DNA from: Nitrospinaceae bacterium
GTDB taxonomy: Bacteria > Nitrospinota > Nitrospinia > Nitrospinales > Nitrospinaceae
Reading direction: 5' to 3'
DNA: 64,000 nucleotides
Assembly: GCA_965237905.1 (NCBI GenBank)
Contig: OZ250172.1
Coordinates: forward strand, 544,001 to 608,000
In this document: piece after piece, positions 8,296-44,477 of the stretch
Position numbering within the stretch: the first letter of the stretch is position 1
How the letters are laid out: every line of letters starts with the position of its first letter
The notes under the pieces: model-generated
Seen by the model: the letters and a program-made list of their open reading frames with translations, nothing else
What the model was told of the DNA's origin: nothing
The model's database searches: none
Position numbers and translations under genes: made by a program

Positions 8296-8340
8296 TGGAT
8301 TTAGAAATGCTGTTTTTTGAAACCAATCACGGAGGTTTCC

Positions 8341-10380
8341 TTGGCTAAAGAAAGAGTCCTCATTGTCGATGACGAAAAAAATATAGTCTCCTCTCTTCAG
8401 GAGATATTAAACGACGAGGGGTATGATATCGTCACAGCTGAAGACGGGTTGGACGCCCTTGAAATAGTACAGTCCGAGCCCCCGGATCTGGTGCTGTTGG
8501 ATATCTGGATTCCGGGCATGGACGGGATTGAAGTATTGCAGGCCATCAAAACCTATCACCCTGAAATCGAAGTATTGGTGATGTCCGGCCACGGAACCAT
8601 CGATACCGCCGTGAAAGCGACCAAGCTGGGAGCCTACGACTTTATTGAGAAACCGTTTTCCCTGAATCAACTGGTCCTGTCCGTCGAGAGAGCTCTCAAA
8701 CAAAGAAAAGGCCGGATGAACGGAAGCGGCAAACATGACGCCGCTCAGCACGAACTTCCCCACTGTTTTGAAATGATGGTCGAAGTCAAGAAAGCGGTGA
8801 CCCGAGCGTCTAAAACCAATGCCCCCATCCTGATCCACGGTGAAATGGGGACGGGTAAGGAATATATCGCGCAGGCCATTCACCATAAGAGCAAAAAGTC
8901 CAATTTTCCCCTTCACAAAATCAATTGCGCACTCCGGTCCATGCCGAAAATCCAAATCGAACTGTTTACCCATCAGGATGAAAAAGGCCAGGAAACGAAA
9001 CCAACCCGTGGAGGCGCCGGGAAGAAGGCGGTGTATTTAAAAAATATTGATTCCATGAGCCAGGACCTTCAGGTAAAACTGGCAACCGCCTTAAAGTCCA
9101 CCTCTCCCGGAAAACCGGAGGGCTTTATTCCAGACAGGATTTTTGCCTCTTCTACAAAAGACTTGGAGGCTATGGTTGGGAAAGGAGAGTTTCATTCTGA
9201 CCTGTATGAAACCTTGAAAGAAAACAGCATCAACGTGCCGCCTTTAAGAGATAACCGGGCCCTGATCCCAACCCTGGTGGACGAATATTTTGAAGATTTG
9301 GAGAACAAGGGCAAAGTCGTTTGCAAAAACTTCAACGAAGAAACCATGCGGGTTCTTTGTGAATACGACTGGCCGGAAAACTTCAAGGAACTGCGTTCTG
9401 TCCTGGACCAGATTGCCCGGACCGTCCACCCGGATGAAGAAATCACCTTGAAGGACTTATCGGCCCTGATCAGGCAAACCCGACACCCACACCAGACAAA
9501 ACCAAATACATCCAAAGGCAAGAAGGGAGACCGCCCGCTTCAGCGCACTTTGAAGCGCAGTGTGGTGCTGTGTGGACGCGGTCTGCATTCCGGAATCAAA
9601 ACCGGCCTCATCATGCAACCCTTGCCTCCGGGAAGCGGAATAATTTTCGGTGATATTTCCAGCGGAAACACCATCCCGGCCAAGGTGGAAAACGTGCAAT
9701 CCACGGAATACGCCACCAGCCTGCGCAAGGGCTACGCATCCGTCTCCACGATCGAACATATTATGGCCACCCTCCACATGTACCGGGTCCATAACCTTTT
9801 GATCAAAATTGGAGACGAGGCCCCCGTGATGGATGGATCCGCCAAAGATTTCTGCCAATTGATCGAAGATGGAGATTTCGAGGAACAGGATGCGCTTTAC
9901 GAAGAACTGGTGATTGATAAAACGTACACCTTCGGGTCAAAAGAAGAAGGTGGAGCACATATTTCCATTGAGCCCTATGATGGCTTCAAAGTGAGTTACC
10001 ATATGGAATATCCGGCACCCATAGGGATCATGGAGCACACCTTTGAGTTTAAAGGGGCTGAGAGCTTCAAAGAAGAAATCGCACCGGCACGCACCTTCGG
10101 GTTTGTGAAAGATGTGGCCATGCTGAATAAAATGGGTTTCGGGGTGGGCGGTAAGCTGGATAACTTTATCCTGCTGGGGGACGAAAAAGTCCTCAACACC
10201 ACATTGCGGTATGACAACGAATTCGCACGCCACAAAATCCTGGATATTCTCGGGGATTTCTATCTGCTGGGAAAACCGATCCGCGGCTATATCAAAGCTC
10301 ATAAATCAGGACACACCCAAAACATCGGACTCCTGAAAACCATCAAGGAAGACCTGGCTCAAGCGGTGCCCGTTCATTGA
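8341..10380 (+). CDS. lpxC: fusion: NtrX-like receiver + degenerate sigma54-type AAA+ domain + UDP-3-O-acyl-GlcNAc deacetylase LpxC
   Basis: Receiver VLIVDDE/LLDIW/MSGHG/FIEKP; Walker A GEMGTGKE. From ~9541: QRTL..G.GLHSG, TIEHIMA, EIAPARTFGF, RHKILDILGD, KSGH. TTG start with GGAGG RBS. Confidence 0.9.
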   Translation: MAKERVLIVDDEKNIVSSLQEILNDEGYDIVTAEDGLDALEIVQSEPPDLVLLDIWIPGMDGIEVLQAIKTYHPEIEVLVMSGHGTIDTAVKATKLGAYDFIEKPFSLNQLVLSVERALKQRKGRMNGSGKHDAAQHELPHCFEMMVEVKKAVTRASKTNAPILIHGEMGTGKEYIAQAIHHKSKKSNFPLHKINCALRSMPKIQIELFTHQDEKGQETKPTRGGAGKKAVYLKNIDSMSQDLQVKLATALKSTSPGKPEGFIPDRIFASSTKDLEAMVGKGEFHSDLYETLKENSINVPPLRDNRALIPTLVDEYFEDLENKGKVVCKNFNEETMRVLCEYDWPENFKELRSVLDQIARTVHPDEEITLKDLSALIRQTRHPHQTKPNTSKGKKGDRPLQRTLKRSVVLCGRGLHSGIKTGLIMQPLPPGSGIIFGDISSGNTIPAKVENVQSTEYATSLRKGYASVSTIEHIMATLHMYRVHNLLIKIGDEAPVMDGSAKDFCQLIEDGDFEEQDALYEELVIDKTYTFGSKEEGGAHISIEPYDGFKVSYHMEYPAPIGIMEHTFEFKGAESFKEEIAPARTFGFVKDVAMLNKMGFGVGGKLDNFILLGDEKVLNTTLRYDNEFARHKILDILGDFYLLGKPIRGYIKAHKSGHTQNIGLLKTIKEDLAQAVPVH

Positions 10381-13155: not shown

Positions 13156-13458
13156 ATGCCCCACTCGAACACAGAATCCCTAACGCTGTCCCGCTTGGAA
13201 GACCTCAGGGACACCGCACGGAAACTCTCGATTGAAATCCTGTTCGCCGACTTGTCCGACCCGGAAATTCCCACTCAAAGCGGTACCTGTAAAGTGCGCG
13301 GTGAGGATTTGATCGTGGTGGACAAACGATTGTCGGCTCAACGTCAGATCGAGGTGATCCTTAACATCTTCCAACAATTCGATTGGGATGACGTCTATGT
13401 CGCTTCCTGGATTCGGGAGCACCTTGATAATCCCAAACTCACCGGCCTCACTTCATGA
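13156..13458 (+). CDS. hypothetical protein
   Basis: GAGG RBS; overlaps the pepM start (ATGA); SG.C.VRG..I.VDK pattern. Confidence 0.7.
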   Translation: MPHSNTESLTLSRLEDLRDTARKLSIEILFADLSDPEIPTQSGTCKVRGEDLIVVDKRLSAQRQIEVILNIFQQFDWDDVYVASWIREHLDNPKLTGLTS

Positions 13459-15212
13459 CTCTGCTCAGCCAAAATTTACCGGAACAAAGGCGCGGCAAAC
13501 TCAAAGCCTTGCTCACTCAGGGCAAACTCGTCCGCGTCATGGAAGCCCACAACGGTCTCAGCGGCATCGTCGCCGACACCACCTGCGTGGAAGGAAAATC
13601 CGGCGACCAGTCGGTCACCCGTCAGTTCGACGCCCTCTGGGAAAGCAGTCTGACCGATTCCGCTTCCAAGGGTCATCCGGATATTGAAGTGGTCAGCTTC
13701 GATTCCCGCCTGCATACCATTCAGGAAATCCTGACCGTCACGCAAAAACCGATGATCGTTGACGGCGATACCGGCGGCGACCCCAACACCTTCGAGTACA
13801 TGGTGTCCAAAATGGAACGGGCCGGCGTCTCGGCAGTCATCATCGAGGACAAAGTATTTCCCAAACGCAACAGCCTGGAAGCCGGTACCAGTCAGGTTCT
13901 GCAGGAACCCGAAGTGTTCGCGCAGAAAATCAAGCGCGGAAAAAAAGTGCAGGCCACCGATGAGTTCATGATCATCGCCCGCATTGAAAGCCTGATCGCC
14001 GGCACCGGAATGGAAGACGCGCTCGCCCGCGCCCGAATTTATCTGCAGGCGGGGGTAGACGGCATCATGATCCACTCCAAGTCTAAACAGCCGGATGAGA
14101 TCATGGAGTTTGCCGGGAAATACCAGAGTCTCCTCAAAGAACTCGAGTTGAGTAAACCCCTCGTGTGTGTGCCCACCACCTACAACAATATCCTTGAGGA
14201 AGAACTGCAGGCCGCAGGATTCCAGATCATCATTTACGCCAACCATCTGTTACGCTCCGCGTATAAAGCGATGCGCGAAACCGCCAAATCTATTCTGTCG
14301 AACCAACGCTCGCTCGAAGCCGACCCCCTGTGCGCCCCGGTGCGTGAAATATTCGATGCCGTCGGTTTTCTGGACGTTAAGGAAAAAGACCAGCAGGATG
14401 AGACCAATACCAATATCCCGGTCATCATCCCCGCCGCCGGAGAAGCGCCGGCCATCGCCCCTGTTCTCAAAAATACGCCCAAGGCCATGGCCGATATCGC
14501 CGGCAAAACCCTACTGGCCCGGCAGGCCCAAACCCTCAACCAGAACCATCTGACGGATATCACCGTGGTGACAGGTTACGCAGGCGATAAAATGAAGGGC
14601 GAAGGGATTTCCTTCCTGCAAAACAAGGATTACAAAAAGGGCACCGAACTGCACAGCCTGCTCACCGCCCAGGAAAAAATGCACAACGGATTTCTGATGC
14701 TGTACTCCGATATTCTCATTGAAAACCATGTGATCGCCCAATTGCTGGCGTCCCGGGAAGATATTGTGCTGGTGCTGGACAACTCCATTCAATACTTGGA
14801 ATCGGTGGAGGGCAAGGCGACCGATTACGTGATCAGCCGCAACCGGCGGAACCGGAACCGCCGAAGCATCAACTTCGATCACCAGAACACCCTTGCCAAA
14901 ATCGGTAAAAATATTGATCCGGCGTTAGCCACTCACGAGTTCATCGGCCTCGCCAAATTCTCAAAGACCGGAGCCGAACAGTTTCTTCAGACCTATCACG
15001 ACGTGTTGAAAAACCTGGAGGGCAAAGTCCAGGAAGCGGAGGACATTTCCCAGTTCCGCCTTACCGACCTGATTCAGGAGATGGTCGATCGTGGTTTCAA
15101 CGTCCATTACCTGGAAATCCACAAAGGCTGGCTGGAAATCCATTTTCCCAAAGACATCGAACAGGCCAACGAATTGTTCACCGTACAGGAACATCCCTCG
15201 GAAGTTATGTAG
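13455..15212 (+). CDS. pepM: phosphoenolpyruvate mutase fused to C-terminal nucleotidyltransferase (PntC/LicC-like)
   Basis: Diagnostic EDK-X5-NS (EDKVFPKRNS), EAHNGLSG, DGDTGG, ARIES, YANH; C-terminal IPAAG..PKAM..TGY..YSDI..W.EI. Confidence 0.9.
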   Translation: MTLLSQNLPEQRRGKLKALLTQGKLVRVMEAHNGLSGIVADTTCVEGKSGDQSVTRQFDALWESSLTDSASKGHPDIEVVSFDSRLHTIQEILTVTQKPMIVDGDTGGDPNTFEYMVSKMERAGVSAVIIEDKVFPKRNSLEAGTSQVLQEPEVFAQKIKRGKKVQATDEFMIIARIESLIAGTGMEDALARARIYLQAGVDGIMIHSKSKQPDEIMEFAGKYQSLLKELELSKPLVCVPTTYNNILEEELQAAGFQIIIYANHLLRSAYKAMRETAKSILSNQRSLEADPLCAPVREIFDAVGFLDVKEKDQQDETNTNIPVIIPAAGEAPAIAPVLKNTPKAMADIAGKTLLARQAQTLNQNHLTDITVVTGYAGDKMKGEGISFLQNKDYKKGTELHSLLTAQEKMHNGFLMLYSDILIENHVIAQLLASREDIVLVLDNSIQYLESVEGKATDYVISRNRRNRNRRSINFDHQNTLAKIGKNIDPALATHEFIGLAKFSKTGAEQFLQTYHDVLKNLEGKVQEAEDISQFRLTDLIQEMVDRGFNVHYLEIHKGWLEIHFPKDIEQANELFTVQEHPSEVM

Positions 15213-35673: not shown

Positions 35674-35922
35674 TTTATTTTCTGATACGACAAGCTATTC
35701 AAGAGTCCAGTGAGCAACCGCAAAGAATAAACAATCCGAGGCACGGATCTGAAAATCATTGAATTTCCTACTCTAACGCTCCCCTTCCCTGCCACCGGAA
35801 ACCACCCTTGTGCTTTTTCCTACGTTTGGACAACCCGATCCTGCCACAAAACCTGTGGCAATCTGAGAATGACCTGTTACATTAATAAGATAGAGTCAAT
35901 TCACATTTTCAGGATAAGAGTT

Positions 35923-36561
35923 ATGCAAAAAACCAAAGCGTTGGCATGGGCAGGCGGTCTTTTACTTTTGCTGGGAACCGCCGCAGGCTGTAATATTAAA
36001 AAAGCGGACACAGCTTTTCTGGACCTCAATACCAGAATACTCATCCACGAATCCAATCTGGGTGGCGGCAAGAACCTGGAGGTTTCCGTAGTGGACAAAA
36101 GAAGGCATAAAACCCTGATGAGGAGAGAATCAGAAAGAAAAATCAGATCCGGCCGGGCTTTGGTTGTAAAGGATTACCATCCATCTCTTCGAATAGATGC
36201 CAGCTTCCAAGAAACCGCCACCGAAGCTTTTCAATTGCAAGGATACCACACGGATGGCAAAGGTACCGGGAGCGCCCGGGAAGTAACCATCTACATCACC
36301 AAAATGGATCTTCGACTACGCAAGGAAAGAACTCGCTCGGGTTCTCTACCCAAAGTCCAGGCCCGGCTTCGCTCAAAAATGAAAGTGTCCGCCAAGAACC
36401 GAGGCATGGCTTACGGAAACGAATACGAGTTTTTCATCAAAAAATCCTACCAAGGCCCTCCTGAAAAACTAGAAACCGAAAAGGTTCTGAATTACGGTCT
36501 CACCCAGCTCCTGCACCAGATACTGGAAGATCCCAAACTCGCCCAATTTCTAACCAGCTAA
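35923..36561 (+). CDS. lipoprotein, YajG-like
   Basis: Lipobox AAGC; V.V.DKR; C-terminal LN..L..IL.DP.L..FL. Confidence 0.65.
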   Translation: MQKTKALAWAGGLLLLLGTAAGCNIKKADTAFLDLNTRILIHESNLGGGKNLEVSVVDKRRHKTLMRRESERKIRSGRALVVKDYHPSLRIDASFQETATEAFQLQGYHTDGKGTGSAREVTIYITKMDLRLRKERTRSGSLPKVQARLRSKMKVSAKNRGMAYGNEYEFFIKKSYQGPPEKLETEKVLNYGLTQLLHQILEDPKLAQFLTS

Positions 36562-36803: not shown

Positions 36804-37484
36804 ATGACAAAAATAATCAACTTTCCTGAAGTCCTAAAAAGCGCCCATCAAAGAAGATTACCTTATCTATTGATGGGGACAATGCTCGGAGTATTCGTTT
36901 CACTTTCAGGATTTGGGTGTACCCATGATCACAAAATTAATCTCAATCCGGAAATATTCGTCCGCGTCAGCAACATCGGTAACGGTGAAAGGCTGGTAGT
37001 TCGAGTAAAGGATACACGTTCCCAAAAAGCTATTTCCAAAAAAGAAACCAACCTTAAAGTAATTTCGGATCGCGCGGTCGACACGGTCAACATCTATGCA
37101 TCCTCCAGCGTTCGCGATACCGTTTCGGATAAGATAATGGCGGGCTTTGAACGGATGGGTTTTCATCCATCCAAACATGGCAACAATTCCAACCGAATGA
37201 TCACCGTGGAGATATCCAAGCTTCAATTGAACTACCAGAGTGGGAAAGTAGGCATTAAAATCCCGGAAGTCCACGCTCAAATGGAAACAATCCTCCGGGT
37301 ACAGGCCAGCCATGGAGATCAATCCTTCAAAAATATTTACAGCTCCCGAATGACCAAATCTCACCGCGTGCTTACCGGGAAATTCAAAAACGAGCGCTTG
37401 GTGAACAATAGTCTTTCCATGGCTATTCAAAAAATATTCGACGACCCTGAACTACTCCAATTTCTTTTACCAGGCAAACCTTGA
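36804..37484 (+). CDS. lipoprotein, YajG-like (paralog of the upstream gene)
   Basis: Lipobox GFGC; V.V.DTR; C-terminal VN..L..IFDDPEL..FL. Confidence 0.65.
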   Translation: MTKIINFPEVLKSAHQRRLPYLLMGTMLGVFVSLSGFGCTHDHKINLNPEIFVRVSNIGNGERLVVRVKDTRSQKAISKKETNLKVISDRAVDTVNIYASSSVRDTVSDKIMAGFERMGFHPSKHGNNSNRMITVEISKLQLNYQSGKVGIKIPEVHAQMETILRVQASHGDQSFKNIYSSRMTKSHRVLTGKFKNERLVNNSLSMAIQKIFDDPELLQFLLPGKP

Positions 37485-37785: not shown

Positions 37786-39114
37786 GTGAAGTATTCTCAA
37801 CTGACCTTTGACGATCCCAATTACAAGAATACCCCTCCCCACCTTCGGCGGGACCGGATTGTTTCCAAGCTGAAGGAAAGTTTCGATTTTGAAAACGCCC
37901 ACCTGCGCTCCTCGTCTAATGAGGGTCAAGGCGTCTTGTCAAAATGCCACGGGTATGAAGCCCCGGATCAAGCCAAGGATCTCGGCATTTACCCCTATTT
38001 CCGCGAAATTGAAGCCATGAACGGCGCCCACGTCACCATTGGGGGACGCGACGTCATAACGGTATCCAGCAACAACTACCTGGGTCTGACCAAGGACCCC
38101 CGAGTCATCGAAGCGGCCAAAAGCGCTTTGGAGAAATTCGGTACCGGGTGCACCGGCAGCCGGTTTCTCAATGGAACCCTGAGTCTCCACAAAAAACTGG
38201 GAAGCGACATCTCCCACTTCCTGCAGCGGGAAGACACAATCGTCATGTCTACCGGTTACCAGGCCAATCAGGGAACCATCGCCTGTCTGCTGGGCCGGAA
38301 AGACATTGCTTTTTCCGACCGGGAAAACCATGCCAGCATCTATGAAGGATGCGCGGTGTCTCCCGGTAAAACGGTACGTTACCGCCACAACGACATGGAT
38401 CATCTGGAGCACTGCCTGAAAAAATATAGCGGAGTCGAAGGCAAATTGATCATCACCGACAGCGTTTTCAGCATGAGCGGCGACATCGCGAACCTTCCGG
38501 GGATCGTCAAGCTGGCGCGGGATTACAAAGCCAGCGTTCTGGTGGATGAGGCCCACGGCATGGGGGTCATCGATGACGCCGGCCGGGGGGCCACGAGCTA
38601 TTACAACCTGGAAAAGGAAATCGACATCTATGTCGGCACTTTTTCCAAAAGCATGGGATCCATTGGCGGATTTGTTTCTGCACATCCTAAAGTCACCGAA
38701 TACATCCGGCACAAGGCTTCGGCGTTTATCTTTACGGCCGCGTTGCCGCCGGCCTCCGTCGCCGGTGTCAATACTGCTTTAAACATTATGATTCAGGAAC
38801 CGGAGAGGATTCGGCAACTTCATGACAATACCACCTACATGAAAAAAGGATTGTTCGGCATGGGATATCAAATCAACAACAATCCGGTTCCGATTATTCC
38901 CATCAAAATCGGAGACGAGGCATTGACGCTTTATTTCAACCAACTCCTGTTCGATCAAGGGGTTTTCGCGGGAGTTGCCGTGTCACCCGTGGTTCCGGCC
39001 TTCCACGCGATGATACGAACCAGCTTCACCTCTGCCCACACGCAGGAGGATATGGACCACGTTCTCCACACCTTCAAAACCATCGGAACCGATTTGGGCA
39101 TTATCCCTCAGTAA
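37786..39114 (+). CDS. spt: alpha-oxoamine synthase, probable serine palmitoyltransferase
   Basis: IYPYFR, SNNYLGL, GCTGSRFLNGT, DEAH, GTFSKS (PLP lysine); first gene of a ceramide-type operon; GTG start uncertain. Confidence 0.8.
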   Translation: MKYSQLTFDDPNYKNTPPHLRRDRIVSKLKESFDFENAHLRSSSNEGQGVLSKCHGYEAPDQAKDLGIYPYFREIEAMNGAHVTIGGRDVITVSSNNYLGLTKDPRVIEAAKSALEKFGTGCTGSRFLNGTLSLHKKLGSDISHFLQREDTIVMSTGYQANQGTIACLLGRKDIAFSDRENHASIYEGCAVSPGKTVRYRHNDMDHLEHCLKKYSGVEGKLIITDSVFSMSGDIANLPGIVKLARDYKASVLVDEAHGMGVIDDAGRGATSYYNLEKEIDIYVGTFSKSMGSIGGFVSAHPKVTEYIRHKASAFIFTAALPPASVAGVNTALNIMIQEPERIRQLHDNTTYMKKGLFGMGYQINNNPVPIIPIKIGDEALTLYFNQLLFDQGVFAGVAVSPVVPAFHAMIRTSFTSAHTQEDMDHVLHTFKTIGTDLGIIPQ

Positions 39115-40235
39115 TGACCATCGTTTTAAAAAAGGTCGAATCCACCAGAGATACCGACCGCTTCATACATTTTCCACGCCAACTATATTCCGACGATACC
39201 CACTGGGTGGCTCCACTGGACAGCGAGAGAAAAAAGTTTCTCTCCCCGGAGATAAACCCTTTTTTTGATCATGCCGAAGCCGAGTACTTTCTCGCTTTAT
39301 CCACCGAAGGAAAAACTCTTGGGCGCATTGCCGCCGTCGTGGACCACGACCACAATCGGTTTCACAAGGAAAATACCGGCTTCTTCGGAATGTTTGAATG
39401 CGTCAATGATGTGGAGGTTTCCTCCCTTCTATTAAACGCGGTGGAGCAATGGTGCCGGAAGAAAGAAATGGACCGAATGCGGGGTCCTCTGAGCCTGTCT
39501 ATCAACCACGAATGCGGCCTGCTCGTGGAAAATTTTGACGACCCTCCAATCCTGGGAATTCCCTACAACCCTCCCTACTACGCTGACTTGTTCCTCCACT
39601 GGGGCTTGAAAAAAATCAAGGATATGGTCTCATTCAAGATTCAAATAACCCACATCCCAGAGCATCTACAAAGAGCGGTTCCATTAATTCAAAAAAGGAA
39701 CCGGTTTAGCATACGTTGCTTGCAGATGGATCGGTTTGACGAAGAATTGGATGTCCTGTGGGAAATTTACAATGCCGCATGGGAGACCAATTGGGGGTTC
39801 GTGCCGATGAATCACAAGGAGTTCGTTTTTACGGCACGGGAAATGAAGACCGTATTGGATCCCCGGCTATGCTTCATTGCCGAGGTGAACGGTGAACCCG
39901 CCGGATTTTGCCTGACTTTGCCGGACGTGAATCAGGCACTCAAACCCATGAAAGGAAAACTGTTTCCTTTCGGCTGGCTGAAGTTTATTCTAGGTAAGAG
40001 AAGGATTAATCGCTTCCGCGTGATCACTATGGGAGTCAAAAAGCAATATCAACGTTTGGGAATCGACGCCTTTTTTTACCACGCCACCTGCAAGCAATTA
40101 ATGGAAATAAATATCTATCGGCTGGATATGTCATGGGTTCTGGAGGACAACCAGGCCATGATCGGTCCCATTGAAAGATTCGGGGGCACCCCCTACAAAA
40201 GGCATCGAATTTATGAACGAAGTCTCACTCATTAA
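39114..40235 (+). CDS. GNAT-fold N-acyltransferase, probable bacterial ceramide synthase (bCerS-like)
   Basis: WVAPL..NPFF, GRIAA, GFFG.FE, GLLVE.F, YNPPYY, NWGF.P, SWVLEDN; coupled to spt. Confidence 0.78.
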   Translation: MTIVLKKVESTRDTDRFIHFPRQLYSDDTHWVAPLDSERKKFLSPEINPFFDHAEAEYFLALSTEGKTLGRIAAVVDHDHNRFHKENTGFFGMFECVNDVEVSSLLLNAVEQWCRKKEMDRMRGPLSLSINHECGLLVENFDDPPILGIPYNPPYYADLFLHWGLKKIKDMVSFKIQITHIPEHLQRAVPLIQKRNRFSIRCLQMDRFDEELDVLWEIYNAAWETNWGFVPMNHKEFVFTAREMKTVLDPRLCFIAEVNGEPAGFCLTLPDVNQALKPMKGKLFPFGWLKFILGKRRINRFRVITMGVKKQYQRLGIDAFFYHATCKQLMEINIYRLDMSWVLEDNQAMIGPIERFGGTPYKRHRIYERSLTH

Positions 40236-41220
40236 CGGGTCATCGACGCTCGTCACCGGTGCCACCGGTTTTATCGGGAGCCATCTGGTCGACGCTTTGC
40301 TGGAACGCGGATGCAAGGTGCATTGCGTAGTCCGTGAAACCAGCAACCTGCAATGGCTCGACACGTCCCGCGTAACCCTGCACACCGGGGATCTCCATCA
40401 CCCCGAAACCTATCAGGACAGTCTCACCGAAGTGGACTATGTGTTCCATTGCGCCGGTATCACCCGTGCCAAGAACAGGCATGAATACCTGCATAACAAT
40501 GCCCGGGTTTGCATTCCTTTTTATCGAAGTTGCGTCGAGTATGGAAAACAGATCAAACGGGTGGTGCATGTCAGCAGTCTTGCGGCGGTCGGCCCCACAC
40601 CTCTCGATCAGAAAGTCGATGAAGACACTCCATGTCATCCGCTAACCTATTACGGCAAATCCAAGTTGACCGGCGAAGAGATTGCCTTGGGATATGCTTC
40701 GGAACTTCCTATGGTGGTTCTACGTCCACCGGTGGTGTACGGGGAACGGGAAATCAACTTTTTCTCTTACTTAAAAGCCATCAAGTGGAGATTGGCCATC
40801 AAAATAGGGACCGCGCCGCGAACCCTCTCCCTTATTCATGTCAAAGATCTGGTCGATGCGATGATCCGGGCGGTGGAGGCTCCGGACCCGGATCGAAATG
40901 TTTTTTTCATCACCGACGGCACTATTTATTCGTGGGACGATGTGGCCAATGCCGCCATGAAAGCTCTGGAGGTCCGGGCGCAGACCGTGATCATCCCGGT
41001 TTCGTTGATGGGCTTTGCCGCCATGGTATCGGAATTTCTGGCAAAAATGGGAAACCGAACCCCGCTCCTCGACCGGCAACGGATGATCGATCTCCGCCAA
41101 AGCTCATGGACGGCATCGCCTCAGCGATTTTTCGACCATTATTCCTTCCAACCCCGGCTTGACCTGAATCAGGGCTTGAAACAGACATGCGCCTGGTATA
41201 AACAACAGGGGTGGCTCTGA
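40213..41220 (+). CDS. NAD-dependent epimerase/reductase, probable ceramide (3-keto) reductase
   Basis: TGATGFIG, VSSLAA, YGKSK, RPPVVYG; overlaps the GNAT gene. Confidence 0.75.
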   Translation: MNEVSLINGSSTLVTGATGFIGSHLVDALLERGCKVHCVVRETSNLQWLDTSRVTLHTGDLHHPETYQDSLTEVDYVFHCAGITRAKNRHEYLHNNARVCIPFYRSCVEYGKQIKRVVHVSSLAAVGPTPLDQKVDEDTPCHPLTYYGKSKLTGEEIALGYASELPMVVLRPPVVYGEREINFFSYLKAIKWRLAIKIGTAPRTLSLIHVKDLVDAMIRAVEAPDPDRNVFFITDGTIYSWDDVANAAMKALEVRAQTVIIPVSLMGFAAMVSEFLAKMGNRTPLLDRQRMIDLRQSSWTASPQRFFDHYSFQPRLDLNQGLKQTCAWYKQQGWL

Positions 41221-41221
41221 A

Positions 41222-42082
41222 ATGTCTTTGCAAGACCAGATCAATCAAATCCGAAAAGACCTGGCAGAACCGGTGGTCCGGTGGATTCAGGAACCGGCCG
41301 CGCGGCCGCTCGTCTATGCTTTTAAAGAAACTCCAGTCACACCCAACCAAGTCACAGGCCTCTCGGCCATTCTGGCCATTGTGGCGGCGTATTTTTTTAG
41401 TTTTGGGGATACCCGCTCCATGATTCAGGGGGGGATTATTTTTGAAATATCCCTTATTCTGGATAGTGTGGATGGGGAACTCGCCCGGGCCAAAGGCTTG
41501 GCCAGCGAATGGGGGCGCATCGTGGACGGCATCGGCGATTACGTTTCCAGCATCGCCGTTTTAATTGGATTGATGATTGGGCTTCCCGACTCCAGGGGAG
41601 CACTACTCATTCTGGCGTTCCTCATATTTTTAAGAGGCGTCACTTTTGACTACTTCAAAGAAAGCATGATGAACAGAATAAAGCACGGGTATGACGGGTC
41701 ACAACGCGATATCCAAAAAACTTATGAAAAAATATCCGCATCCTCCTCCTTTATACTCAGAATCTATTTTTATTATTTGCAACTCCAGCAATTGCTGTTC
41801 AGAGGACATTGGACTTCTTTCAAGGGTTATGCTTCAGCCGGGTCATCGAAGGACGCCGCTTGGCCGGAAGAACAAAGACTACGCTATTATCAGGAAAAAC
41901 GACCCTTGATCATTCTTTGGAAATGGAACGGGCCGGATTTGATTTTTTTTCTCATCGCCCTGCTTTCCTGTTTTTCTATTCTGGATAGTTACTTGCAGTG
42001 GCTCTCAGGATTCATGATCATACAGTTGGTTATAACGTTCCTTCTTCATCATTATATGATTCGCAATGAAAAATATTCTTAA
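41222..42082 (+). CDS. CDP-alcohol phosphatidyltransferase family protein
   Basis: TPNQVT and D.VDG.LAR....S..G...D...D signature. Confidence 0.9.
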   Translation: MSLQDQINQIRKDLAEPVVRWIQEPAARPLVYAFKETPVTPNQVTGLSAILAIVAAYFFSFGDTRSMIQGGIIFEISLILDSVDGELARAKGLASEWGRIVDGIGDYVSSIAVLIGLMIGLPDSRGALLILAFLIFLRGVTFDYFKESMMNRIKHGYDGSQRDIQKTYEKISASSSFILRIYFYYLQLQQLLFRGHWTSFKGYASAGSSKDAAWPEEQRLRYYQEKRPLIILWKWNGPDLIFFLIALLSCFSILDSYLQWLSGFMIIQLVITFLLHHYMIRNEKYS

Positions 42083-44477
42083 GTGGTGCTATCTTAATAT
42101 AACTTCAAGAAATCCGTGGCTCCTGGTAACGTGCGCCGCTCTGGTAACGCTCGGAGCCCTCTGGATTGCCTCCGGCTTGACCTACAGCCCTCGCCTGGAC
42201 AACCTCCTCCCTCAAGACCTGGAACTTGTCCAGGAGTTCAACCAGGTGATAGAAAAAACAGGAGGTACCGGACCCCTGGTGGTGGTTCTGGACGGCTTAA
42301 AACCAAAAGAAGCACCCGGAGTTATCGATAGCCTGACCGGAAGATTTCAACGGGTCCCTGATGTTTATTTTGTAGACTTCCGGGTACCGGTTAAGTTTTT
42401 AAACAACCGCCAATTGCTGTTCGCCACTCAAAGTGATCTGGAAGAACTGGATCAAGTGATTGAGGGGGCTATTGAACACGCCCGCAGCTCGGTGACCCAA
42501 TTTTTCGGAACTACTCAGGATTCCTATAATCCCTCCAAACTCCAAGACCTGTCCGGCCATTATAAAATCTTTGAAAATATCCAACCGTTCTATAAGGGCA
42601 AAAGCGGAAAACGCTATTATATTTTTATTCAACCTCGCGGCACGGCCTCCAATACAGGTTTCACCCAACAATTCGTTGAGTCGATTCAGGAGCAAGTCGA
42701 TCAGTTCCTTGCAAAAAATCGGTTCCCGAATTTGAAAATCCAGTTTTCCGGAGGCATGATTACACGTATCGAGGAAAACCGGGTCATCCAAAATGATTTA
42801 AAAAATTCAGCGATCGTCACCGTGGTTCTGGTCACATTCATTCTAGCTCTGTACAACCGGTCCGTCCTCTCCATTATTCTACTATTCATTCCCCTGATCA
42901 CCTCCCTCAGCCTGACCTTCGCGCTCACCCGCCTGCTGATTGGCCACGTCAACATTGTTTCCGGGTTTTTGGTCGCGATACTGACCGGATTGGGAATCAA
43001 TTATGGGATACATTTATACATTCGATTCAAGCAGGAATTACGCAAAGGCCAAACCATCCCGGCGGCGGCAGAGCTGGTCGCCACCCAGGTAGGTCGATCC
43101 GGTGTCATCGCCATGGCCACAACCATCAGCGTCTTCTCTTTGTTAATGTTTTCCGATTTCCGCGGATTCTCTGAGTTCGGTGCCATTGCAGCTATCGGGA
43201 TCATGTGCTCCTTCCTCAGCTATTTTTTCCTGTTGCCTGCTTTGATTCTTTGCGCCGACAAAATTCACGGATTACGGAAGCCCCGGCCCCGGCTGTTCTC
43301 TTTAAGAATTTCCGCCATCTATTCCAAAACCCCTCTCTTTCTGGCGGCCATGTTCATCGTGTTGCTGATCTCCAGCCTGTTTCTCCTTCCCGATATTGAG
43401 TTCGAGCACGATTTCCGAAAACTGCGTGGAGAATCGCCGGCTGCCGACTTTGAAGCAGAAACCTCAGAAGACTTTGGGTTCGCCTTTTCTCCAACTGTGA
43501 TTATGACTCCCAACAAAGAGGATCTCTTCCAAATCCATCAGGCTCTTCAAACCCTCAAGGAGAAGTACGGGGACGACTCCACCATAGGAATTCACCATTC
43601 ACTGGATCTGTTCAGCCTCAAGCAATACGAAAGCAAAAAAGCGGTCCTGAAGCACATCCATGATAAATTGATCAAAGACCGGGATATCATTGAAATATCC
43701 ATGGGGACACAGCGATACCGCAAGCTCAAACGTCTGGTGGAAGCCAAACCCTTCGACGAAAAACATATCCCTCCTAATTTATTGAAACGCTTTATGGCGG
43801 GGGATCAATACCTGCTCCTGATTTTTTCTCCGGCAAATAAAAACTTTTTCGATGTAAGAAATATTTATCAACTCAAAAAGGAAATCACTGAACTCAAGGC
43901 ATCCCTCGCCAAAGACAATATCCACTTTGCAGTATTGAATGAGAACCTGCTGGCCGCCGCTATTTTGGACTTGGTTCAACAGAAAGGCCCACAAACCCTG
44001 GCTTGGGCCATGGGACTGGTATTTTTAATCCTGCTCTGGGACTACCGGAGCCCCCGGCTGGCCTTCAAAACCTTCCTTCCCCTGTTTACGGGTCTGGCTC
44101 TGACCGGAGCGTTGATGGCCGTCTTTCATATCAAACTGAATTTCATCAATATGGTGATGCTTCCCTCAATTGTCGGTATAATGGTCGATCATTGCGTTTA
44201 TCTGGGGCATCACATTCTGGATTATTCCCGGTATGAGACCACCAAATCCGTCAAGGAAACCGGAAGCGCTATTATTCTATCCGCCTTGGCAAGCCTGGCG
44301 GGATATATCAGCCTGAATATCGCACAGCATGCCGGAGTACGATCCATCGCTCATGTCGTGGAAGTAGGAATCATCGTCTGCACCCTGTGCGCTTTGTTCA
44401 TGCTCCCGGTATTGTTTCAAATGGGCGCCCACAAGTCTCCTTCATACAGAGCGCCCCAACCGGACAAGCAGGATTGA
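42066..44477 (+). CDS. MMPL/RND family lipid transporter
   Basis: Two repeats of TM + large periplasmic loop + 5 TM; GLGINYGIH, SDFRGFSEFG, GI.VD... Confidence 0.88.
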   Translation: MKNILKWCYLNITSRNPWLLVTCAALVTLGALWIASGLTYSPRLDNLLPQDLELVQEFNQVIEKTGGTGPLVVVLDGLKPKEAPGVIDSLTGRFQRVPDVYFVDFRVPVKFLNNRQLLFATQSDLEELDQVIEGAIEHARSSVTQFFGTTQDSYNPSKLQDLSGHYKIFENIQPFYKGKSGKRYYIFIQPRGTASNTGFTQQFVESIQEQVDQFLAKNRFPNLKIQFSGGMITRIEENRVIQNDLKNSAIVTVVLVTFILALYNRSVLSIILLFIPLITSLSLTFALTRLLIGHVNIVSGFLVAILTGLGINYGIHLYIRFKQELRKGQTIPAAAELVATQVGRSGVIAMATTISVFSLLMFSDFRGFSEFGAIAAIGIMCSFLSYFFLLPALILCADKIHGLRKPRPRLFSLRISAIYSKTPLFLAAMFIVLLISSLFLLPDIEFEHDFRKLRGESPAADFEAETSEDFGFAFSPTVIMTPNKEDLFQIHQALQTLKEKYGDDSTIGIHHSLDLFSLKQYESKKAVLKHIHDKLIKDRDIIEISMGTQRYRKLKRLVEAKPFDEKHIPPNLLKRFMAGDQYLLLIFSPANKNFFDVRNIYQLKKEITELKASLAKDNIHFAVLNENLLAAAILDLVQQKGPQTLAWAMGLVFLILLWDYRSPRLAFKTFLPLFTGLALTGALMAVFHIKLNFINMVMLPSIVGIMVDHCVYLGHHILDYSRYETTKSVKETGSAIILSALASLAGYISLNIAQHAGVRSIAHVVEVGIIVCTLCALFMLPVLFQMGAHKSPSYRAPQPDKQD

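Follow-up and report, generated by a model that had tools for sequence, protein, structure and literature searches.

Here we present a five-gene cassette, found in the genome of a Nitrospinaceae bacterium, whose co-inherited genes are predicted to make a ceramide, add a phospho- or phosphono- head group to it and export the product through an MMPL transporter. We put the probability of this full reading, which is drawn from sequence comparison, at roughly 0.6; that the cassette makes ceramide appears highly probable. The cassette lies in the window, the whole stretch of 64,000 nucleotides that was analysed (positions 544,001 to 608,000 of contig OZ250172.1, assembly GCA_965237905.1, or G000:C1:544001-608000), within a genome, G000, that consists of a single contig of 3.09 Mb. 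Throughout, g1 to g22 are genus labels used within Nitrospinota, and L, P and G numbers designate loci, proteins and genomes.

All five genes are open reading frames (ORFs) on the + strand. Gene 1 (37786..39114; 442 amino acids, aa) encodes a serine palmitoyltransferase (SPT, Spt)-like alpha-oxoamine synthase; its start was placed at the GTG at 37786, behind a GAGGG motif, which gives a product of the same length as its orthologs, the alternative ORF start being 37768. Gene 2 (39114..40235; 373 aa) encodes a GNAT N-acyltransferase of the bCerS/YghO family, and gene 3 (40213..41220; 335 aa from the ATG at 40213, alternative start 40171) a CerR-like extended short-chain dehydrogenase/reductase (SDR). 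Gene 4 (41222..42082; 286 aa; PF01066) encodes a CDP-alcohol phosphotransferase, the candidate ceramide head-group transferase, and gene 5 (42066..44477; 803 aa; PF03176) an RND lipid transporter of the MMPL/HpnN type. An earlier, sequence-only reading of this DNA had described five abutting or overlapping genes, and the measured junctions, from gene 1 to gene 5, bear this out: a 1-nt overlap (TAATG), a 23-nt overlap, a 1-nt gap and a 17-nt overlap. The Pfam families are also as it proposed, with E-values of 1e-53 (Aminotran_1_2), 2e-7 (Acetyltransf_1), 2e-36 (Epimerase), 5e-14 (CDP-OH_P_transf) and 2e-30 (MMPL). The cluster is not a chance arrangement, since all five genes are under purifying selection (dN/dS 0.09-0.15 against the relative L051) and the identical gene order recurs in loci from nine genera (g1, g3, g6, g10, g11, g13, g17, g19 and g21), as the synteny survey suggested in that reading revealed. 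The cassette is widespread in the order and conserved across most of it. The fhs gene begins 46 nt past the cassette, a linkage that is not conserved across the order, and a scan for promoters and terminators gave counts near the shuffled background (11 vs 8.3; 19 vs 10.8).

The assignment of gene 1 as an Spt rests on several lines of comparison. The YPYFR and GTFSKS motifs, previously taken as SPT-type, are present at residues 69 and 284. The top NCBIfam model is SerpalmtaseCFB, the Bacteroidota-type Spt, at 447.8 bits, vs 385, 374 and 370 bits for BioF/Kbl models, and the top match in the PDB is the S. multivorum SPT at 344 bits, the next protein scoring 279. Using the SPT active-site residues given in the accessible part of PMC10196870, gene 1 aligns identically at N52, G80, S81, H138, S185, D210, H213, T241 and K244, most of which are common to other alpha-oxoamine synthases too; Met271 of SPT, a main-chain contact, is Ile in gene 1. 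The phylogeny that the sequence-only reading had called for was carried out with 22 rows, without a HemA outgroup and with a long branch leading to the E. coli Spt, and it places gene 1 in a 14-row clade (support 100/98) together with the E. coli Spt and Bacteroidota spt products, Kbl and BioF falling outside. The E. coli enzyme is the one whose activity was assayed in PMC9386255, as its available passages state. Gene 1 is 46% identical to the Parabacteroides Spt and 36% to that of E. coli. Just outside the Spt clade branches an alpha-oxoamine synthase from another order of the phylum (G112, L089:9100-11883), which adjoins an 88-aa ORF and a ketosynthase-like gene.

Genes 2 and 3 complete a triad of ceramide genes, and the bCerS-like and CerR-like assignments proposed for them were likewise supported. 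Gene 2 is 36.6% identical to E. coli YghO over 99% of its length (378 columns, E 2e-77) and is the sole match in a YghO search of G000. The yghO gene is located in the spt locus of E. coli BL21, and the accessible part of PMC9386255 assigns the N-acylation in dihydroceramide synthesis to yghO/ECD_02850 and Caulobacter CC_1154; YghO was the member of this pair used for the comparison. An ortholog of gene 2 at 52% identity is encoded by Ca. Nitrohelix vancouverensis (P0085). No PDB sequence match to gene 2 was obtained at E up to 1, and NCBIfam holds no model for either gene 2 or YghO. Gene 3 is the top match in G000 of E. coli ECD_02852 (26% identity, 112 bits, E 1e-28; next match 64 bits, 4e-12), and the spt-linked reductases of Streptomyces, Rubrobacter and Aureispira also retrieve it first. 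It carries the motifs TGATGFIG and YGKSK, with no N-terminal extension before the Rossmann motif. The spt-GNAT-SDR order of genes 1-3 is found on Streptomyces and Rubrobacter plasmids as well. No ortholog-level match to E. coli AasR, AcpR, LptF2 or LptG2 was detected in G000, which carries one LptF and one LptG only.

To place the last two genes in context, we surveyed 120 genomes of the phylum, 57 of them high-quality, with gene order read in loci from part of the genomes. GNAT matches were found in 75 of the 120; subtracting seven (g14, g15) that have only a 34-40% paralog leaves 68 of the cassette type. MMPL was found in 66 genomes, the CDP-alcohol transferase in 64 and the reductase in 75, and spt matches in 86, comprising 72 orthologs at >=65% identity and 14 weak matches in other orders. 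MMPL and CDP-alcohol transferase share 62 genomes, MMPL and cassette-type GNAT 64, and the genomes discordant for these three are all 61-78% complete. The same 34 of the 57 high-quality genomes hold all three; one of the 34, G062, has no spt match, and its GNAT match lies at a contig end. Rearranged versions also exist: the order is MMPL-desaturase-spt-GNAT-SDR-CDP in g20 and desaturase-spt-GNAT-SDR-CDP in g18 and g22, where the MMPL gene is unlinked yet kept at 55-58% identity. Lipid-tailoring genes join the cassette in relatives, a fatty-acid desaturase in g16, g18, g20 and g22 and, downstream, a fatty-acid hydroxylase in g10.

Two syntenic deletions in this distribution are informative. In the four genomes of g4 (96-99% complete) the site reads bioD-reductase-fhs-queD-bioA, with spt, GNAT, CDP-alcohol transferase and MMPL gone. 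In g14 and g15, spt adjoins the reductase, the pair having on either side the neighbours seen in g13, and GNAT, CDP-alcohol transferase and MMPL are gone. Because MMPL was lost with the CDP-alcohol transferase both times, once with spt left behind, we conclude that it tracks the head-group step and not spt alone.

Gene 5 itself has the features of a lipid transporter, with two MMPL repeats and an RND fold. Its predicted model (pLDDT 76) has HpnN as top fold match (TMq 0.72, 17% identity). With the HpnN model TIGR03480 it scores 224.7 bits vs a cut-off of 751.85; a separate HpnN in G000 scores 654 and is merely 22% identical to gene 5. A profile search with gene 5 returned, besides one Nitrospinota cluster of full length, relatives of ~800 aa that form a broad family (2753 clusters at E <=1e-30), and the three organism-named entries among the 20 top relatives come from Oligoflexia, Deltaproteobacteria and Corallococcus. 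Among 20 long relatives, fusions to PgpA (4), Wzi (2) and an outer-membrane efflux protein (1) were identified (P0253, P0259, P0326, P0359, P0297, P0304 and P0215), and no MMPL-Spt fusion was seen in the 20 long homologs scanned. Metagenomic MMPL loci were also collected, taking the best 80 of 551 confirmed matches, of which 21 are of Nitrospinota type (MMPL >=48% identical) and 59 distant. Eight of the 59 distant loci contain a CDP-alcohol transferase; at >=10 kb the figure is 7/38, vs ~2% expected from the gene density of G000. The neighbours in eight scanned distant loci include NTP transferases, MIPS (inositol synthase), LPG_synthase_TM and PAP2. From its sequence context, then, the MMPL family looks like a transporter of lipids bearing CDP-alcohol-derived head groups, with sphingolipids as one use.

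A non-Nitrospinota metagenome locus, L198:939-10568, carries a desaturase, a CDP-alcohol transferase, a reductase, spt, a 372-aa ORF, a second CDP-alcohol transferase and MMPL. There is no bCerS homolog within 18 kb, and the 372-aa ORF that follows spt is not one.

Gene 4 has the complete family motif, D81xxD84G85xxA88R89...G98xxxD102xxxD106, and the nearest folds to its predicted model (pLDDT 88) are AF2299 and IPCT-DIPPS; DIPPS takes a soluble CDP-alcohol donor, according to the accessible part of PMC9246714. G000 has three further PF01066 genes, one of them PssA beside psd. A word-based search with gene 4 gave 91 matches, and the organism-named ones are all from Nitrospinota.

Taken together, these assignments suggest a five-step pathway. 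Judging from its phylogeny and active-site residues, Spt would condense L-serine with acyl-CoA or a housekeeping acyl-acyl carrier protein (acyl-ACP) to 3-ketosphinganine, no dedicated AcpR or AasR having been found for this step in G000. By homology, the YghO/bCerS protein would then N-acylate 3-ketosphinganine, and the SDR would presumably reduce the 3-keto group to yield dihydroceramide. The CDP-alcohol transferase is predicted to draw on a soluble donor activated with CMP and to place its head group on the C1 hydroxyl of ceramide; the donor thought most likely is CMP-2-aminoethylphosphonate (CMP-AEP), which would yield ceramide aminoethylphosphonate (CAEP). Finally, the fold and co-loss of the MMPL protein suggest that it delivers the lipid, once this bears a head group, to the periplasmic side, as HpnN delivers hopanoids, and it would stand in for the LptF2G2 system used by Caulobacter.

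A number of observations weigh against this pathway or parts of it. Gene 1 falls below the NCBIfam cut-offs for Spt, models that are lineage-specific (447.8 vs 640 for CFB, 369.7 vs 500 for BetaP and 308.2 vs 670 for AlphaP). The Spt clade also includes an enzyme of Priestia whose gene neighbourhood contains no ceramide genes, so membership of the clade does not prove the substrate of gene 1. The reductase is CerR-like and linked to spt, and to that extent its proposed place in the ceramide pathway stands; it is, however, kept in 4/4 g4 genomes that have neither spt nor bCerS (for example L100:8436-9458, L101:8650-9672 and L102:8682-9704), at a dN/dS of 0.07-0.17, and this purifying selection indicates that it has some other use there and does not occur only with Spt. 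Among 21 ortholog sequences of gene 4, 14 carry Gly at the fourth Asp of the motif, and Asp stands there solely in genus g1. Five high-quality genomes have spt and the reductase and neither MMPL nor CDP-alcohol transferase, which weakens the tie of MMPL to spt. An spt-like gene occurs in just 1/59 of the distant MMPL loci (1/38 of those >=10 kb) and a bCerS-like gene in 0/59, so that the MMPL subfamily is not sphingolipid-specific. The losses described above were deduced from synteny without a species tree, among related genomes that are not independent. The pathway had also been called self-contained, and this does not hold: the head-group donor is made elsewhere, and the five genes include no donor enzyme, ACP, acyl-ACP synthetase or outer-membrane step. 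As for MMPL as the sphingolipid exporter, the part of that proposal concerning a lipid-transporter fold co-inherited with the pathway survives; the protein follows the CDP-alcohol transferase rather than spt, and the idea itself had already been put forward for an spt-adjacent MmpL of Myxococcus xanthus, as stated in the accessible text of bioRxiv 10.64898/2026.04.12.717747.

G000 lacks the inositol synthase MIPS and any match to the choline/ethanolamine kinase family, with no LicD above cut-off, and has a full AEP pathway with a fused nucleotidyltransferase, which makes CAEP a candidate product. The fusion (13455..15212, + strand, 585 aa) joins a phosphoenolpyruvate (PEP) mutase, scoring 354 bits with TIGR02320 (cut-off 319.55) and bearing the EDKVFPKRNS motif, to an NTP_transf_3 nucleotidyltransferase domain (PF12804), and we infer it to be a candidate, unlinked source of the CMP-AEP donor. 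Split Ppd-like genes (G000:C1:1553703-1554750) and an above-cut-off AepZ/PhnW (G000:C1:684407-685501) would supply the remaining steps. Formation of CMP-AEP has been shown for PF12804 enzymes in the accessible part of PMC6697681. This pathway is close to universal in the order: across the phylum the PepM-NTP fusion is found in 90/120 genomes, Ppd in 97/120 and AepZ in 93/120. These genes are equally frequent in the cassette-negative genera g2, g4, g9 and g14, an uncharacterised stand-alone LicC-like NTP transferase that could furnish another donor occurs in 73/120 genomes, and both facts count among the points against a phosphonate. In the 120 genomes neither the AEP genes nor MIPS nor the stand-alone NTP transferase was found to co-vary with the cassette; the CMP-AEP donor would be available nearly wherever the cassette is, yet without a tie to it. 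The pepM neighbours are housekeeping genes (rseP, proS), with no phosphonate cluster. CAEP is known mainly from invertebrates and ciliates, and sphingophosphonolipids occur in Bacteriovorax stolpii. PMC9174665 concerns the invertebrate lipid, and our literature search turned up no bacterial CMP-AEP:ceramide transferase and no paper on a bacterial ceramide phosphoethanolamine synthase. CAEP would be the single most likely product, though at odds well short of even. The still broader proposal, that the main ocean nitrite oxidizers make CAEP through a core CMP-AEP pathway, a new CDP-alcohol-family transferase and dedicated, Lpt-independent MMPL export, is more doubtful.

A sphingolipid with a phosphate-ester head group (phosphoethanolamine, phosphoglycerol or phosphoinositol, with precursors imported or otherwise made) in place of a phosphonate is the strongest alternative, a serious possibility that falls short of an even chance and that overlaps the proposed pathway as a refinement of it. 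MIPS, although patchy, occurs in 61/120 genomes, including most of g18 and g22, and related transferases adjoin MIPS at L238 and L191. The LicC-like NTP transferase is widespread, and M. xanthus makes ceramide phosphoinositol, as noted in the available portion of PMC9246714. Against this alternative, no MIPS turned up in G000, in several cassette-positive genomes that are single-contig or >=94% complete (G020, G030, G032, G033 and G034), or in any of three genomes of g19, and G000 has no match to the choline/ethanolamine kinase family.

It is less likely that genes 1-3 make ceramide and that the CDP-alcohol transferase and MMPL constitute a separate, diacylglycerol-based glycerophospholipid module that is merely adjacent. 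The CDP-alcohol neighbourhoods of the MMPL family support this possibility as well as the MMPL export step: distant MMPLs adjoin CDP-alcohol or NTP transferases, MIPS, LPG_synthase_TM and PAP2 without spt, four relatives are fused to PgpA, and at L238 a full-length gene 4 homolog (24% over 277 aa) neighbours MIPS and MMPL with no spt. The joint loss of MMPL and CDP-alcohol transferase from g14 and g15, where spt stays, points the same way. In g4, however, the two genes vanish along with spt and bCerS, and a module of this kind was not found in any high-quality genome without the cassette GNAT. Moreover, the CDP-alcohol transferase gene of g18 and g22 remains directly behind spt-GNAT-SDR after the separation of MMPL, and L198, outside Nitrospinota, unites a desaturase, two CDP-alcohol transferases, a reductase, spt and MMPL.

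That gene 1 uses alanine, glycine, cysteate or another acyl donor, giving 1-deoxy-sphingolipids, sulfonolipids or amino-lipids, with MMPL moving hopanoids or lipids in general, is improbable. The specificity of SPTs is relaxed, according to the accessible part of PMC10196870, hopanoid genes are reported for Nitrospinae in that of PMC8026999, and HpnN is the top fold match of gene 5; on the other hand, gene 1 scores 205 bits with the cysteate acyltransferase structure vs the 344 with SPT, the linked CDP-alcohol transferase implies an acceptor with a free hydroxyl, and G000 has an HpnN of its own, distant from the cassette MMPL. The remaining possibility, that gene 1 is a BioF or Kbl in a chance neighbourhood with the biotin genes bioD (32787) and bioA (47105), both within 5 kb, is largely refuted by the placement of gene 1 in the Spt clade, by the two further alpha-oxoamine synthases of G000 (a Kbl above cut-off beside tdh and a BioF-like enzyme near bioC) and by the retention of bioD and bioA in g4, where gene 1 is gone.

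Set against systems already described, the proposed ceramide-export cassette is partly familiar. It has clustered homologs of all three genes of the Spt-bCerS-CerR pathway of Caulobacter (CC_1162/CC_1154/CC_1164) and E. coli BL21 (ECD_02854/02850/02852); it differs in having an Spt nearer the Bacteroidota type, no AcpR/AasR or LptF2G2, a stand-alone CDP-alcohol transferase and an in-operon MMPL, and in belonging to a new phylum. The nearest precedent for the transporter is in M. xanthus, where an MmpL directly downstream of spt was noted as a possible alternative sphingolipid transporter (bioRxiv 10.64898/2026.04.12.717747, accessible text). As here, an MmpL-family transporter stands beside spt with a single lptFG, and the nearest named relatives of gene 5 are from Oligoflexia, Deltaproteobacteria and Corallococcus; here, unlike there, MMPL lies behind the CDP-alcohol transferase and its co-occurrence has been tallied across 120 genomes. 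For LptB-F2-G2 of Caulobacter, genetic and pull-down evidence of sphingolipid transport is given in the same text. The Caulobacter CPG/CPG2 system (PMC11324152, accessible part) also has head-group genes in the spt locus, including CC_1159 with its CDP-alcohol-displacing domain, and a locus-encoded inner-membrane transporter, unlike the present cassette, which has no ceramide kinase or phosphoglycerate genes and an RND/MMPL protein instead of an ABC transporter. Gene 5 shares its fold with HpnN and MmpL3/4/5, and it differs from HpnN in sequence, in coexisting with a separate HpnN ortholog and in its predicted cargo, a sphingolipid. The Ppm-PF12804 fusion, Ppd-like subunits and AepZ of G000 correspond to the phosphonyl-tailoring enzymes Ppm, Ppd, AEP transaminase and PntC (PMC6697681, accessible part), with the difference that the G000 genes are scattered and lie apart from the cassette.

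As the sequence-only reading supposed, the lineage does not appear to be a recognised sphingolipid producer: no statement that Nitrospinota make sphingolipids was found in the literature passages, titles and abstract openings searched. Spt-like genes have been extended to 40 phyla (PMC11334938, accessible part), and the string 'Nitrospin' is absent from the main text of that paper, whose figures or supplement may include the phylum, and from that of bioRxiv 10.64898/2026.04.12.717747. In its accessible portion PMC8026999 mentions hopanoids in Nitrospinae and neither sphingolipids nor ceramide. No title or abstract opening on sphingolipids or phosphonolipids of Nitrospinota came up in a search mostly outside subscription journals, and a search joining MMPL, sphingolipid and bacterial serine palmitoyltransferase returned no paper. 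Hence the ceramide triad and the idea of an spt-adjacent MmpL are already known, and the lineage, the co-loss of MMPL with the head-group step and the phosphonate-donor lead are apparently new.

Further observations concern related genes and the surroundings of the cassette. A second YghO/bCerS-like paralog, 33-38% identical to gene 2, occurs in g13, g14 and g17 (L039:9402-18914, L040:9098-18173, L043 and L093-L096), in head-to-head orientation to a highly reducing type I polyketide synthase of 2550-2580 aa (PKS; KS-AT-DH-MT-ER-KR-ACP) and often near a further CDP-alcohol transferase; possibly this locus directs a ceramide with a methyl-branched, PKS-made acyl chain. In g6 and g15 (L036:733-9093 and L041:1-8833) a YghO-like paralog stands beside a PIP-synthase-like CDP-alcohol transferase, PAP2 and GT2- and PMT-type glycosyltransferases, a grouping that resembles a glycosyl-inositol-phosphoceramide-type cluster. 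In G038 (L109:7683-8808) the cassette GNAT is broken into two ORFs, through a frameshift or an assembly error. Immediately upstream of spt lie tandem Lipoprotein_16 (YajG-like) paralogs (35869-36561 and 36804-37484), which are paired in g1, single in g3 and not conserved in other genera; they are possible periplasmic or outer-membrane partners of the cassette. Elsewhere in the window, positions 8317-10380 encode a 687-aa fusion of a response regulator, a sigma-54 activator domain and LpxC (lipid A deacetylase).

The accessible parts of PMC11087976 and bioRxiv 10.64898/2026.04.12.717747 leave unanswered by what route bacteria that lack LptF2G2 move sphingolipids out of the inner membrane, the former stating in 2024 that no sphingolipid transporter was known. 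With its five genes and one transporter, the cassette offers a compact system in which to test this, and its naturally deleted variants suggest that the cargo is the head-group product. Among known marine nitrite oxidizers Nitrospinota are the most abundant (PMC8026999, accessible part), and a lineage-wide ceramide lipid, if confirmed, would be a candidate biomarker. If the lipid were a phosphonolipid, it would add a further bacterial source of phosphonate in the sea and identify the transferase that places aminoethylphosphonate on ceramide, and should the CAEP reading prove true, the cassette would represent a second, Lpt-independent route of bacterial sphingolipid transport.

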